The position numbers were made by a program, and so were the translations under genes. A DNA stretch of 64,000 nt, from NCBI GenBank assembly GCA_015065295.1, contig SVQN01000005.1:2133-66132 (forward strand). The letters are read 5' to 3'. Shown in pieces: positions 618-54,584 of this stretch. Every line of letters starts with the position of its first letter. The first letter of the stretch is position 1. Under the pieces are notes generated by a model. That model was not told where the DNA came from. It worked only from the letters and a program-made list of their open reading frames with translations, and did no database searches. The stretch is from Oscillospiraceae bacterium (lineage in GTDB: Bacteria; Bacillota; Clostridia; Oscillospirales; CAG-272).

Positions 618-742
618 TCGTAGTCCGTCGATCAATTTGGGTAAACGATATTTTGTCGGAAATCCATCCAAAATCGGACGGTTAATTGACAAAATATGCT
701 ATGTTCAGACCCTTTGGCGGACACGGCACGCCGTGTCCCTAC
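618..742. repeat. H-family element copy H0 (right GTAG-hairpin intact, left hairpin deleted)
   Basis: Right end CGGACACGGCACGCCGTGTCCCTAC at 718-742. Left end cgtag|tccgtcgatcaattt aligns with the H1 left end but lacks the palindrome. Confidence 0.55.
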
Positions 743-5476: not shown

Positions 5477-5503
5477 ATCGTTTTGATCTGTCGTCTTTCC
5501 CCC

Positions 5504-5644
5504 GTAGGGACACGGCGTGCCGTGTCCGTCTATCAATTTAGACAAACCGAATTTTGCAGGATATGATCCAAATTCAAATCCTCCATTTACAAAATTTGAT
5601 TTGTTTGAAATCCATCAAACGGACACGGCACGCCGTGTCCCTAC
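5504..5644. repeat. H-family REPIN-like doublet H1
   Basis: GTAGGGACACGGCGTGCCGTGTCCG (5504-5528) and its inverted copy CGGACACGGCACGCCGTGTCCCTAC (5620-5644) flank about 90 bp of AT-rich spacer. Confidence 0.8.
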
Positions 5645-5665
5645 AGTATAGAAATTCTGTTTTGA

Positions 5666-8257
5666 TTATTCGTTCGTTTCTGTTTCCGGTGCAGCTTCCG
5701 CCGATTCTTCTGCCGGAACGGGTTCCGTTTCCGCAGGTTCTGCTGCTTCTGTCTCTGCAGCCGGTGCTTCTTCTTCCTTTTCCTTTTCGGTCAGGGCAAA
5801 GTTCACCAGCTTCGCGCCGTCGGAGAGCTTCATCACGATAACGCCCGCCGCCGGACGTCCGTACAGCGGAATTCCGTCCGCAGGGGTACGGATGATCGTG
5901 CCGTCGTTCGTAATCATCATGATGTCTTCATCCGCCTTAACGACCGCGATGCCGCAGAGGAGACCGGTCTTGTCCGTGATCTTCTGCGCGATCACGCCCA
6001 TGATGCCGCGTCCCTTCGCTTCGAATTCGGATGCTTCCATCCGCTTGCCGAAGCCGCCTTCCGTGATCGTAATTAGCTTGTTTTCCGCAGCCCACGCTTC
6101 GTCGCGTTCCACAATGCACGCGCCTGCCACGAGGTCGCCGTCACGCAGAGAGATACCGCGGACGCCGCCCGCCGAACGTCCCATGCAGCGTACCTGATTT
6201 TCGTCAAACCGTGCCGCATAGCCGTTCTTCGTGGCGATCATCACGTCGGACTGTCCGCGCGTGTGCGCGACGAACTTCAGACGGTCGCCGTCGTCGAGAG
6301 TCAGCGCGATCTTACCGCCCTTCCGCTGAATGCGGAATTCGGACAGCTTCGTACGCTTCACCACGCCGCGCTCCGTCACCATGACGAGGTAGCCGCAGTC
6401 TTCGGAATCCATTTCGCTTTCCAGATCGGGTACGGACAGCATCGCCGTGATCTTGTCGCCTTCCGCAATGTCCGCGATGTTGACGATGTTCGATCCCTTC
6501 GAGGTGCGTCCGGCTTCCGGAATCCGGTAGGCTTTCATTGAATGAACGCGTCCCGTGTCGGTGAACAGCATCAGGTACGAATGCGAGTCCGCAACGACCA
6601 CGCGTTCGATGTAGTCCTCTTCCTTCGTCGCCATGCCGATGACACCGCGTCCGCCGCGCCGCTGTGCCGAGTATACGTCGGACGGCTGACGCTTGATGTA
6701 CCCGTCGTGGGTCAGCGTGATGACCGCATTGTGGCGTTCGATGAGGTCTTCGAGCATGATTTCATTTTCAACTTCTTCGATATTTGTACGGCGTTCATCA
6801 CCGAACTTGGCCTTGATTTCCGTCAGTTCGTCGCGGATGATCTGACGGATGCGCGCAGGATCGGACAGAATCGCACGGAATTCTTCAATCGCCGCGTACA
6901 GTTCCACGAGCTTTGCTTCGATCTTCTGACGTTCCATGCCGGACAGACGGCCGAGCGTCATGGCAACGATCGCCTGCGCCTGTTCTTCCGACAGATCGAA
7001 CCGGACGCGGAGATTTTCTCTCGCCGTCGGCTGGTCGGCGGACGCGCGGATGATCGAAATAACCTCGTCAATGTGGTCGATGGCAATCTTGTAGCCTTCG
7101 TTGATGTGCGCTTCGTGGAGTGCCTTGGTGAGGTCGTACTTCACGCGGTTCGTGATGACCTCTTCCTGATGCTTGACGTATACGCCGAGAATCTGACGGA
7201 GGTTCAGTACCTTCGGTTCCCCGTTGACCAGCGCGATCATGATTGCGGAGCAGGTGTCCTGAAGCTGCGTGTACTTGTACAGCTGATTCAGGATGATCTG
7301 ACCGTTCGCGTCACGGCGGTATTCGATGACAATCCGCATACCGTCGCGGCCGGATTCGTCGCGGATGTCGGTAACGCCGTCAATGACCTTCTTGTCTCCG
7401 CGCACCATCGGAACCATCGACTTGATGAGTTCGGATTTCTGCACCATATAGGGAATCTCGGTGATAATAATGCGGTGGTGTTCTTCTTCAACGTGCGCCT
7501 TGGCACGGACCATGATGCGTCCGCGTCCGGTGGAGTAGGCTTCGTAAATGCCCGCCGTCCCGTAAATCGTCGCACCGGTCGGGAAGTCGGGGCCTTTGAT
7601 GAACTGCATCAGTTCGGAAACGCCCGCGTCGGGATGATCCATGAAATAAATCGTACCGTCGATGACCTCGGAGAGGTTGTGCGGCGGAATATTTGTCGCC
7701 ATACCGACCGCAATGCCGACCGCGCCGTTGACAAGCAGGTTCGGGATGCGCGCAGGGAGAACGGAAGGTTCGCGGCGGGTGTTGTCGAAGTTCATATCCC
7801 ACTTGACAACATCCTTTTCGATGTCGCGCATCATTTCGTCGGCGAGCTTCGACATTCTCGCTTCGGTGTAACGGTAAGCAGCGGGGCTGTCCCCGTCGAT
7901 GGAACCGAAGTTCCCGTGCCCTTCGACGAGCATATAGCGGTAGGAGAACGGCTGCGCCATGCGGACCATGGTCAGGTACACAGCGGTGTCGCCGTGCGGA
8001 TGGTAACGGCCGAGCACGTTACCGACGGTCGTCGCGGACTTGCGGAAGGGTCGGTCGTAGGTGAGGTTGTCCTCGTACATCGCGTAGAGGATTCGCCGCT
8101 GACCGGGCTTCATGCCGTCGCGCGCATCCGGAAGAGCGCGTGCCACGATAACGGACATGGAATATTCGATGAAGGACTTGCGTACTTCCTTTTCCATGTT
8201 GATCGGCACGATCTTCTGATCCGGAAATTCGATATTGTAATCGTTGTTTTTAGCCAT
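5666..8257 (-). CDS. gyrA: DNA gyrase subunit A
   Basis: [28 protein letters not shown] and HPHGDTAVY motifs. 863 aa with an acidic C-terminal tail. Confidence 0.98.
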
Positions 8258-8297
8258 ATTGTATCTTTCTCTGTTATTTAAACATTAAACGTAAATA

Positions 8298-8515
8298 TAA
8301 ATCTGTTCGATTCCTGAAAATTACGGCTTCACCCGTAGGGAGCGGCGCCCTCGTCGCTCCGTCTATATTCCTCAAGCAAACAGAATTTTATGGATAAAAC
8401 GTCAAAATATAACGTCTGTATTACAAAAAATATAATTTTTCTTAATCGTTCGACGGAGCGACGAGGGCGCCGCTCCCTACGGTCAGCCGTAATTTAATAG
8501 AATCGAACAGATTTT
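8298..8515. repeat. H-family REPIN-like doublet H2 (variant palindrome)
   Basis: aaatctgttcgattc..ttacggct..cccGTAGGGAGCGGCGCCCTCGTCGCTCCGTC on the left and its inverted copy on the right. AT-rich centre. Confidence 0.8.
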
Positions 8516-8519
8516 TCAC

Positions 8520-16644: not shown

Positions 16645-17128
16645 CACGCCTCCGGCGGGGAAGGAAGAAAAAAGTACCGTTCCGGTACTTTTTTCAATTT
16701 TATGTCCCTGCGCGGGACGGCGCATAAAGGGGCTCAGACGCCGCCCCTTTATGAATTCCCGGCTTGACGTTCGGGGGACTCGCCCTTAAGGGCTCAGACA
16801 TACAGCGGTGTTCACTCAGCAGATTGCACGGAAGAACAGAGATTTCGTTTCACTAAAAGGTGGAACTGACATTTCAGTTTTCCCTCACGGCTATTTCTAC
16901 TGAACGAACAATTTGGACAGATTTGCACATAACCTTGTCTCTTCCTAAAAATCTGAATGCGGGCAAACCGCTGTCTGTCCGAGGCCTTAAGGGCGAGTCC
17001 CACGAACGTTTAGCCAGGAATTCACAAAGGGGCGGCGATTGAGCCCCTTTGTGCGCCCGTCCCGCGTAGGGACATAAATTTTGAAAAACGCCTTCAGGCG
17101 TTTTTCTTCCTTCTGCCCCGAAGGGGCA
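16645..17128 (+). repeat. L-family multi-hairpin element L1
   Basis: Long inverted arms (tatgtccctgcgcgggacggcgcataaaggggctcagacgccgcccctttatgaattccc... / ...gaattcacaaaggggcggcgattgagcccctttgtgcgcccgtcccgcgtagggacata) around an asymmetric core. A-tract/hairpin/T-tract modules at both ends. Confidence 0.85.
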
Positions 17129-25957: not shown

Positions 25958-26443
25958 AGCCCCTTCGGGGCTAAAGGAAGAAAAAAGTACCGTTCCGGTA
26001 CTTTTTTCAATTTTTATGTCCTGCGCGGACGGCGCATAAAGGGGCTCAGACGCCGCCCCTTTATGAATTGCCGGCTTGGAAATCGTTCGGGGGACTCGCC
26101 CTTGAGGGCTCAGACAGACAGCGGTTTGCACTCAGCAGATCGCACGGAAGAACAGAGATTTGATTCACTGAAAGGTGGAACTGACAATACAGTTTTTCCT
26201 CACGGCTGTTTCTACTGAACAAACAATTTGGACAGATTTGCACCCAACTTTGTCCCTTCCTAAAAATCTGAATGCGGGCAAACCGCTGTCTGTCCGAGGC
26301 CTCAAGGCCGAGTCCCCCGAACGTCAAGCCAGGAATTCACAAAGGGGCGGCGACTGAGCCCCTTTGTGCGCCGTCCCGCGTAGGGACATAAAATCTGAAA
26401 AATGTCCGAAGGACATTTTTCTACCTTCCACGCCGAAGGCGTG
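25958..26443 (+). repeat. L-family multi-hairpin element L2
   Basis: Collinear with L1 over its full length. Begins 5 nt after the mnmE stop. Confidence 0.85.
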
Positions 26444-34761: not shown

Positions 34762-34830
34762 GTGGAACCTCCTTGGAAAAATTTTCGATTGAATTTTATT
34801 TGGATGTGTTCGATGACCTCATTTGTTTTC

Positions 34831-34968
34831 GTAGGGACACGGCGTGCCGTGTCCGCCAAACAAATTGGAAAAACAAAATTTGATCGGATTTTTATCGGAA
34901 ACAAACATTTTTTGACAAAATATTGTTTGTCTGAATTGGTCTGCGGACACGGCACGCCGTGTCCCTAC
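34831..34968. repeat. H-family REPIN-like doublet H3
   Basis: GTAGGGACACGGCGTGCCGTGTCCG (34831-34855) and CGGACACGGCACGCCGTGTCCCTAC (34944-34968). The ends are identical to H1. Confidence 0.8.
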
Positions 34969-34984
34969 AGGTGATCGAACAGGT

Positions 34985-35320
34985 CTATTTATGTATCCAT
35001 GCGCTGAGAATCATAGCGGCGATCCCCAGTACAAAATAAACCGCGGCATATAACAGAAACGCCGTTTCTCCCGGCTCAAAACAAATCCACGTTCCCGCAA
35101 GAAACGCGGCGGCATTGTATAGCGGAACCCACCACAGGTTCCGGAGGTGCTTTCCGGCGGTTACGCCGGTGAAAACCGCGCACAGCGGATCGACGCAGAA
35201 AAACAGCAGCAGACAGATCGTCATCGCCATGCCGGACTGAATCAGCCGGACGGTCAGCCACGGCAGAACGAGCATCACGCCGAGGATCGCGGCGCAGGTC
35301 ACGAGGATCGTCTTTTTCAT
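34985..35320 (-). CDS. hypothetical membrane protein (4 TM)
   Basis: 111 aa, almost entirely hydrophobic helices. Confidence 0.65.
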   Translation of the reverse strand: MKKTILVTCAAILGVMLVLPWLTVRLIQSGMAMTICLLLFFCVDPLCAVFTGVTAGKHLRNLWWVPLYNAAAFLAGTWICFEPGETAFLLYAAVYFVLGIAAMILSAWIHK

Positions 35321-35417: not shown

Positions 35418-35422
35418 TTTGA

Positions 35423-35512
35423 CGCAAAGGGAGAGATTCGAACTCTCGGTCGGTTATTAGCCGAACACACGATTTCCAGTCGTGCGCCTTAGACCAGCTC
35501 AGCCACCTTTGC
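35423..35512 (-). tRNA. tRNA-Ser (anticodon GGA)
   Basis: Minus strand GCAAAGGTGGCTGAGCTGGTCTAAGGCGCACGACTGGAAATCGTG-long variable arm-GAGAGTTCGAATCTCTCCCTTTGCG. 7-bp acceptor stem, TTCGAAT T-loop, CTGGAAA anticodon loop, no encoded CCA. Confidence 0.9.
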
Positions 35513-35631
35513 GTATCGGTGTGCTGTGTCTATCAGACACAATATTTGTTTGCGCTGTTTCATCCAGCCTCTATATTATATCACCGCGACTTCCTTTTGT
35601 CAAGAGCTTTTTAAAACTTTTTTTGAAAAAT

Positions 35632-35664
35632 TTCAAAAAAATCGGGGAGGAGAAATCCTCCCCG
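35632..35664 (-). terminator. intrinsic terminator after first SBP gene
   Basis: Minus strand CGGGGAGGAtttcTCCTCCCCG followed by ATTTTTTT. Confidence 0.7.
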
Positions 35665-54075: not shown

Positions 54076-54584
54076 ATGGCTTACAGCGGTGGAGAATACC
54101 AAACTGTTCGTTTGCATTGAAAGGAAGAAAAATGACCGTTCCGGTCATTTTTCAATTTTATGTCCCTACGCGGGACGGCGCACAAAGGGGCTCAGACGCC
54201 GCCCCTTTGTGAATTCCTAGCTTGCCGTTCGGGGGACTCGGCCTTGAGGCCTCAGACATACAGCGGTTTGCACTCAGCAGACCGCACGGAAGAACAGAAA
54301 TACAGTTTTGCAAAAAGGTGGAACTTAAATTTACAGGTATCCCTCACGGCTGTTTGTAGTGAACGAACGCTTTGGACAGATTTGCACCCAACCTTGTCTC
54401 TTCCGAAGGGTCTGAATGCGGGCAAACCGCTGTCTGTCCGAGGCCTTAAGGCCGAGTCCCACTTCCGTCAAGCCAGAAATTCACAAAGGGGCGGCGACTG
54501 AGCCCCTTTGTGCGCCGTCCGCGTAGGACATAAAATTTTGAAAAACGCCTTCAGGCGTTTTTCTACCTTTTGCGGCGAAGCCGC
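54076..54584 (+). repeat. L-family multi-hairpin element L5
   Basis: Left end of the long type (as L4), right end of the short type (as L1). Fills the mreD-dusB gap. Confidence 0.85.

Follow-up and report, generated by a model that had tools for sequence, protein, structure and literature searches.

GTAG-headed hairpin doublets in an uncultured gut member of the Clostridia: probable REP-RAYT repeats, mostly nested in small inverted-repeat elements

Hairpin doublets beside gyrA and elsewhere in the window

The stretch of DNA considered here, referred to as the window throughout, comprises 64,000 nt from an uncultured gut bacterium of the Clostridia (C50:2133-66132 of assembly G000, which consists of 2.9 Mb in 135 contigs with 53.7% G+C and is ~71% complete) and contains several pairs of inverted hairpins headed by the motif GTAG, among them one in each of the two spacers flanking gyrA. 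An earlier note, made from the sequence of the window alone, had likened these pairs to repetitive extragenic palindromic (REP) sequences and to REPINs (REP doublets forming hairpins), as mobilised by REP-associated tyrosine transposases (RAYTs). This comparison was supported by our analysis, in which two RAYT genes were detected in the genome, both outside the window, and it is likely that the GTAG doublets are REP/REPIN-type repeats of REP-RAYT systems in uncultured gut Clostridia (Oscillospiraceae-like), most of them nested in miniature inverted-repeat transposable elements (MITEs) with terminal inverted repeats (TIRs).

The affiliation with the Firmicutes, as proposed before, agrees with the product of gyrA (5666-8257, minus strand), which matches 'Clostridia bacterium' metagenome-assembled genomes (MAGs) at 99% and Ruminococcaceae/Oscillospiraceae at 74-77%. 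The spacer of 188 nt (5478-5665) that separates the stop of gyrA (5666, minus strand) from the next gene, which starts at 5477, holds a bare, REPIN-like doublet of type A (5504-5644, 141 bp) without outer inverted repeat and without target-site duplication. It is composed of a plus-strand REP unit (5504-5527), i.e. the GTAG head and the hairpin GGACACGG-CGTG-CCGTGTCC of family A, and of the same 24-mer, GTAGGGACACGGCGTGCCGTGTCC, in inverted orientation on the minus strand (5621-5644), and it was predicted to fold into one long hairpin (-44.4 kcal/mol, z = -11.95). A second A-type doublet of 138 bp is located at 34831-34968 (hairpins at 34831-34854, plus strand, and 34945-34968, minus strand; fold energy -48.3 kcal/mol, z = -11.5) and is enclosed by an outer TIR element of type A1, GATGTGTTCGATGA...TGATCGAACAGGTC, at 34803-34985 (C50:36935-37117). 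The identical ends ascribed to these two pairs are exact, GTAGGGACACGGCGTGCCGTGTCC being present at all four of them, and the 24-mer has five exact matches in the window compared to none in 100 window shuffles.

Upstream of gyrA, where the same layout with a different palindrome and a longer inverted repeat had been described at 8298-8515, a B-type doublet of 146 bp (8335-8480) was confirmed, with the 26-mer GTAGGGAGCGGCGCCCTCGTCGCTCC at 8335-8360 (plus strand) and 8455-8480 (minus strand). The inverted repeat around it, AAATCTGTTCGATTC...GAATCGAACAGATTT, reaches outward to about 8299-8514 in the pfkB-gyrA spacer, and a stable fold was predicted for this outer element (-74.1 kcal/mol, z = -14.6). 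The half-deleted copy assigned to 618-742 is real as well: it is a decayed A-type doublet in a palindromic context of type A2 (620-742), the right hairpin of which is intact (719-742, minus strand), and exactly 17 nt are gone from the left hairpin, so that GTAG abutting TCCGTCGATC remains at 620.

Both gyrA spacers, next to a housekeeping gene close to the replication origin, are hot spots of insertion. The downstream spacer measures only ~24 nt in G006, one of the nearest species, and 17 nt in a relative with 89% GyrA identity, the A doublet being absent from both, and 89 nt with a different hairpin in a relative with 97% GyrA identity. The upstream spacer (8258-8519), which has 262 nt with the B element, is reduced to 58-59 nt in the 97% and 89% relatives, and the entire B element is absent from that of the 97% relative. 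Relatives in this range (89-97% GyrA) have unrelated repeats, or none, in both spacers, differing by lineage. Because these sites are empty in relatives, the A and B insertions are to be regarded as recent, i.e. later than the split from the 97% relative. Occupied sites, which the earlier note had proposed to look for together with empty ones, were found in six of six assemblies of the same species (identical GyrA), all of which possess both gyrA-flanking elements.

Three hairpin families in the assembly

A scan of the 71%-complete assembly for GTAGG followed by a stem-loop retrieved 182 GTAGGG-headed hairpins, a high number, where a very low one together with the lack of any Y1/RAYT-like gene had been named beforehand as speaking against REPs. 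They belong to three families, A (70 sites), B (70 sites) and C (42 sites), and share the anatomy of GTAG-tagged REPs, namely a GTAGGG head followed by a stem of 8-9 bp and a loop of ~4-8 nt. Next to the hairpin of family A described above, that of family B reads GGAGCGG[C/T]G-CCC[T/C]-CG[T/C]CGCTCC, and those of family C are of GCGGGGG...CCCCGC types. The hairpins form 84 doublets (A 33, B 31, C 20), every one of them with a plus-strand unit followed by a minus-strand unit and heads outward, with sizes of ~139 bp in A, 137-146 bp in B and 74-76 bp in C.

In minimum-free-energy folds of the doublets as single-stranded DNA one long hairpin was obtained in which the two REPs are paired (z about -11 to -12), and this arrangement of paired inverted REPs in a single fold is the layout of a REPIN. 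As is characteristic of REPs, the copies are many, dispersed and mainly extragenic: in 46 of 68 doublets the overlap with long open reading frames (ORFs) was <=20%, which was true for 6.5% of random 140-bp segments.

Two RAYT genes outside the window

The genome search for Y1_Tnp (PF01797) suggested in the earlier note led to a single Pfam match, RAYT#1 (C113:12419-13027, 202 aa), with 30.6 bits at a cut-off of 23. Its sequence also matches TnpA-REP of E. coli (4er8), and the best PDB fold match (Foldseek) of its AlphaFold model (pLDDT 80) was again 4er8, TnpA-REP bound to REP, with the ISDra2 and IS608 transposases behind. No exchange of H79, H81 (HUH) or Y181 was seen in 34 homologs, the tyrosine being aligned with Y115 of 4er8; RAYT#1 hence combines an HUH motif and a catalytic tyrosine on a Y1_Tnp fold, as RAYTs do. 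Within the gene itself, two exact copies of the A hairpin stand in frame at a distance of 126 nt, with their heads outward, the left one having the same sequence as the REP unit at 5504-5527 of the window. They encode VGTRRAVS (residues 94-101) and GHGTPCPY (residues 144-151), between H81 and Y181, and in the model both peptides are predicted to fall in loops of low pLDDT (residues 92-113 and 143-158). RAYT#1 is a single-copy gene in conserved housekeeping synteny in related assemblies, with the A hairpins inside it, and family A is its putative cognate REP family, judging from sequence.

The second gene, RAYT#2 (C93:23908-24441), was found by tblastn; its ORF is intact, lies in an AT-rich stretch and is 27% identical to RAYT#1. 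A B doublet starts 23 bp past its stop codon, so that both genes show what is expected of RAYTs, a single-copy, vertically inherited gene associated with REPs, in RAYT#1 by A hairpins within the gene and in RAYT#2 by the adjoining B doublet. RAYT#2 and this B doublet form an AT-rich island (C93:23880-24660), with an upstream gene on one side and the 3' end of a cysS-like gene on the other, which suggests that they were acquired as a block. In G034, a member of another family of the same order, 17 B hairpins were counted in the genome, and its RAYT, which is of the RAYT#2 ortholog type, includes two B hairpins in frame and a third that provides the TAG stop. Family B thus appears to be cognate to RAYT#2. 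When seven clostridial RAYTs were used in tblastn against the assembly, only the genes on C113 and C93 were returned; C-like hairpins occur within RAYT genes of other Clostridia, e.g. L046.

Hairpins in RAYT homologs and covariation between congeners

For comparison, 80 homologous loci from named genomes (Clostridia, Chloroflexota, Bacteroidota and others) were assembled, of which 58 showed GTAG hairpins inside the gene and 12 only beside it. Hairpin identity amounted to 87% within one gene but 42% between loci, and in-gene and flanking hairpins of the same locus were 92% identical. The RAYT of a Ruminococcus sp. MAG (L015), 50% identical to RAYT#1, shows the A hairpin in exact form at the two corresponding sites, and the gene-borne hairpins are therefore old. 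Among the congeners, by comparison, expansion of A hairpins was seen in G000 only: 52 other species of the genus were checked and none had A hairpins except for one doublet in G044. A close ortholog of RAYT#1 was not present among the representative genomes of the genus.

Hairpins and RAYTs vary together in a congener, G048, the RAYT of which is 55% identical to RAYT#1 and contains stems, GGACACAG/CTGTGTC and GGACATAG/CTATGTCC, with compensatory changes relative to GGACACGG/CCGTGTCC, the encoded peptides being altered too. Three dispersed doublets of ~132 bp were found in G048, all exactly of the variants in the G048 RAYT and none of the type in G000, and in the G000 genome no doublets of the G048 variant type were found.

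The A doublet of G044 (L145, G044:C16:21131-21270) is 100% identical over 203 nt to C2:16859-17061 of G000, including 60 nt of the right flank, and differs in the left flank. It may be due to a chimeric contig of the MAG or to a very recent transfer and was not used as evidence.

TIR elements around the doublets

According to flank alignment, about 58 of the 84 doublets are centred in longer inverted repeats or TIR elements, which are 77-400 bp long, non-coding and AT-rich, with TIRs of 12-16 bp. The element TIR-BC, ACGTGAGTTCGA...TCGAACTCACGT, contains 26 of the 31 B and 13 of the 20 C doublets, type A1, GACCTGTTCGATAAC...GTTATCGAACACATC, contains 18 A doublets, and seven to nine further A doublets reside in a third palindromic context, A2; the remaining doublets are bare. 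Of 34 TIR-BC elements, 17 have direct repeats at their ends, which are 5-8 bp long and for the most part AT-rich and of 7 bp (TAATTTA, TAAGATA, TAAAATA); with TIRs, duplication and no coding capacity, TIR-BC corresponds to a DDE-type MITE. In A1, direct repeats of the form TA or TAWTA flank most of the clean copies; the A1 copy of the window has no duplication at the boundaries used. Copies without recognisable outer TIR, a few of them with degenerate remnants, showed no duplication at the hairpin ends in 13 of 13 cases, which is what insertion of the Y1 type should leave.

Bacterial MITEs, e.g. RUP, NEMIS/Correia and Nezha elements, are mobilised in trans by DDE transposases, and Y1 transposases (IS200/IS605 family) produce no target-site duplication. 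As the outer elements carry duplications and Y1 enzymes make none, the outer elements would be MITEs moved by a DDE transposase, with the inner doublets as passengers. Amplification was probably for the most part a hitch-hiking on a DDE-type MITE, with RAYT not as the main agent.

Conservation forms two separate islands, the TIRs and the hairpins: in the B elements it reached 0.90 in the TIRs and 0.96 in the hairpins compared to 0.51-0.67 in the arms and 0.78 in the inner part, and in the A doublets 0.98-1.0 in the hairpins and 0.71 in the inner part. Moreover, four unrelated contexts were encountered for the same A doublet (bare, in A1, in A2 and inside the RAYT gene), and TIR-BC was found without GTAG hairpins in the nearest species, G006 (C66:1920-1988) and G009 (C23:57-124), and in L134. 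For A1, the status of an independent host element is indicated only by its direct repeats, because A1 was never seen empty; in relatives no A1-type TIR without a doublet was found. Concerning an autonomous insertion sequence (IS) with the outer TIRs, no pair of them 0.6-4 kb apart and enclosing a transposase gene was detected, which in a 71%-complete assembly is weak evidence.

Further arrangements of these elements were encountered in G000. At C27:18715-19024 a 164-bp TIR element bearing a C doublet (C27:18801-18964) is inserted in an A doublet, with a TAGTTTA duplication. TIR-BC with unrelated cargo is present at C44:5004-5161, C47:12248-12463, C99:12642-12799 and C89:10729-11126, the cargo being GGGGAGGAACTTTTT hairpins and a 398-bp palindrome, with ~7 bp AT-rich duplications. 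Two TIR elements have lost their doublet by deletion (C64:17285-17370 and C81:33251-33327), one of them between GGTG microhomologies with GTAGGGAGCGGTG left, the other being an element minus both C hairpins; hairpins are apparently often lost via slippage. All three outer TIR types have the core GTTCGAT in common.

Origin and spread of the doublets

Bare doublets in unrelated flanks, empty orthologous sites and the covariation in G048 were observed, as would be expected of units replicating in dependence on a RAYT, yet most copies sit in TIR elements and no movement was seen. As to the likely course of events in the REP-RAYT reading, each RAYT would bind its cognate GTAG hairpin in single-stranded DNA, cut and rejoin it, and thereby seed doublets at new intergenic sites without target-site duplication, a step suggested by the homology to TnpA-REP, by the bare copies and by the covariation of hairpin and RAYT. 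Some doublets may have landed at the centre of palindromic TIR miniature transposons, speculatively because the apex of an extruded palindrome is single-stranded. The composites would then have been copied mostly as passengers by the DDE-type transposase of the MITE, as the target-site duplications and the near-identical copies of whole elements suggest. We infer the catalytic activity of the RAYTs as well as the direction and order of these events.

Several results weigh against this reading. The best NCBIfam family of RAYT#1, REP-associated tyrosine transposase, scored 66.1 bits and thus stayed below the cut-off of 80, probably due to the hairpin-encoded insertions that split the match into two stretches. 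The link between family A and RAYT#1 consists of sequence identity and one clear covariation between two genomes. RAYT#2 itself retains only a decayed relic of an in-gene hairpin, of the same length and at the second site, and for family C no RAYT was found in the 71%-complete assembly. Among the six assemblies of the same species no polymorphism was seen, and neither a transposition event nor an excision product. Judging from the target-site duplications, most B and C copies, and probably those of A1 too, could have multiplied without any RAYT activity. Finally, a hairpin-free profile of the inner parts of the A doublets scored 4.3 bits against the corresponding segment of RAYT#1, a value equalled by one of 300 shuffles; a derivation of the dispersed A doublets from this inter-hairpin segment by internal deletion was considered and is too weak to rely on.

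A more far-reaching scenario, which we regard as rather unlikely, treats the RAYT gene as a portable seed: whoever acquired it would gain the enzyme together with its substrate hairpins in frame and could found a new population of REP doublets, these would settle preferentially at MITE apices, and Y1 and DDE enzymes would jointly drive the composite. It was suggested by in-gene hairpins older than the dispersed copies, by the covariation of hairpin and RAYT between two congeners, by sequence next to the stems that is weakly shared between gene and doublets, and by the presence of duplications at TIR-BC and their absence at bare doublets.

It is improbable that the doublets are merely internal modules of DDE-mobilised MITEs, with the match to the hairpins of the RAYT gene as a by-product, e.g. 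of an insertion into the gene. Such an origin would agree with the location of about 58 of 84 doublets in TIR elements, with the 5-8 bp duplications on 17 of 34 TIR-BC elements and with near-identical copies that have arms and TIRs in common besides the doublet. However, bare doublets without TIR and duplication exist in unrelated flanks in all three families, one A doublet recurs in four unrelated contexts, and hairpins are far better conserved than the arms surrounding them. In addition, the hairpins within the gene are old, as the RAYT of the 50%-identical Ruminococcus MAG attests, and the dispersed copies lineage-specific, the hairpin variants of G048 track its RAYT variants, and sister species possess the TIR family without GTAG hairpins.

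Little probability is given to the view that the doublets are now immobile structural or regulatory elements (stabilisers of mRNA 3' ends, attenuators or protein-binding sites) kept by selection, and the RAYTs domesticated or inactive. Their fixation in all six assemblies of the species would fit, as would their strongly extragenic position and very stable folds and perhaps their lower frequency in divergent (promoter-side) spacers (9 of 63 versus ~15 expected), a depletion which is mild and not significant and depends on crude gene calls. But the insertions postdate the split from the 97% GyrA relative, no T-runs follow the hairpins, an Rfam scan of the window returned tRNA only and no RNA family matching the doublets, and the unrelated repeats in the same spacers of relatives are in better accordance with opportunistic insertion than with a conserved role. 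A regulatory use is compatible with the doublets being repeats of a REP-RAYT system.

An origin of the hairpins as subterminal ends of an autonomous IS200/IS605 element or its derivatives is very improbable and already contradicted, as the Y1_Tnp fold of the associated proteins and their matches to the IS608 and ISDra2 transposases are outweighed by the presence of no more than two Y1 genes, which have diverged from each other (27% identity), each in single copy instead of multiple near-identical tnpA genes bracketed by end hairpins, by the conserved housekeeping synteny of RAYT#1 across assemblies, by the lack of tnpB near the RAYT genes and of any IS-like bracketing, the hairpins being internal to the gene and not flanking it, and by best family and fold matches to TnpA-REP and not to IS200.

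Comparison with known systems

To our knowledge, REP/REPIN-RAYT systems have been studied almost entirely in Proteobacteria, and a well-populated system is now seen in gut Clostridia, which adds a new host lineage to a kind of system already known. Compared to MITEs of the RUP, NEMIS and Nezha type, the outer elements are alike in having TIRs, in being small, non-coding and AT-rich, and in target-site duplications of 6-8 bp (TIR-BC) or TA/TAWTA (A1); they differ in that their cargo includes a REP doublet presumably cognate to a Y1 transposase, and the assembly yielded no autonomous partner that has these TIRs.

The REPINs and RAYTs of Pseudomonas and Escherichia (Bertels & Rainey, 2011, PMC3116915; structure 4er8) share with the doublets the build of two inverted GTAG REPs and a spacer that form one long, extragenic hairpin, the conserved REPs with a variable spacer, and a vertically inherited single-copy RAYT. 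In those genera, however, the RAYT is flanked by REPs, whereas here REPs lie inside the RAYT, and the copies are fewer here, with 20-33 doublets per family. Furthermore, the REPIN model does not include a nesting in TIR elements, many of them with target-site duplications, as it is seen here for about two thirds of the doublets.

A survey of GTAG REPs included Proteobacteria, Cyanobacteria, Chloroflexi and the PVC group, and Firmicutes or Clostridia are not mentioned in its text (Di Nocera, 2013, PMC3733652). Its REPs and 'TIRtron' composites resemble the doublets in the GTAG tag, in GC-rich stems of 6-13 bp and in dimers with GTAG termini outside, as well as in several families per genome, sub-families with compensatory stem changes and occasional fusion to unrelated stem-loops. 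In contrast to the 'TIRtron', the outer TIRs found here are an independent family with 6-8 bp duplications that occurs without GTAG units in sister species.

REPs within the gene have been reported as a unique and predominant feature of TnpA-REP subclass 2.4, where they are located in a peripheral variable region, and this subclass abounds in Cyanobacteria and in Bacteroidetes and is scattered elsewhere (Quentin, 2018, PMC6006769). Its counterpart in the scheme of Bertels et al. (2017) is probably RAYT group 4; abundant REPs were tied only to RAYT groups 2 and 3 (Bertels, 2017, 10.1101/119735). Judged by features alone, i.e. the in-gene hairpins, RAYT#1 is of the subclass 2.4 type. It has in common with REPtrons of this subclass the in-gene hairpins, a cognate REP family per gene and a single-copy gene, and differs in its host, a lineage of gut Clostridia. 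The hairpins of RAYT#1 occupy the second and third permissive sites (~residues 93 and 143), whereas those of most clostridial relatives are at ~38 and 93.

What appears to be new is that most doublets are centred in TIR elements and that, as the sequences clearly indicate, doublets can spread second-hand in transposons that make duplications. Such second-hand amplification matters wherever RAYT activity is deduced from REP copy number. The RAYTs of G000 and G048 with their matching compensatory hairpins constitute a natural specificity pair, the RAYTs have their own substrate within the reading frame, and the doublets account for part of the unusually repeat-rich intergenic space of the lineage.

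Further features of the window

The 9-mer GTAGGGACA, which the earlier note had also recognised in the arms of another element, is present there, at 17066-17074 instead of the 17064-17072 given before, and it is the arm of a different small hairpin. Further sites in the window are 26380-26388 and 54161-54169, with ~22 sites genome-wide, and all are part of another repeat module, ...AAAGGGGCGGCG-TGAGCCCCTTTGTGCGCCGTCCCGC-GTAGGGACA-TAAAATTGAAAAA, behind which lies a terminator-like hairpin. In this module GTAGGGACA forms the 3' arm of a small GTCCC/GGGAC hairpin and heads no palindrome, and no relationship between the module and family A was shown. A tRNA gene is located at 35423-35512 on the minus strand, and the region of ~35418-35640 is 90-100% conserved across the genus.

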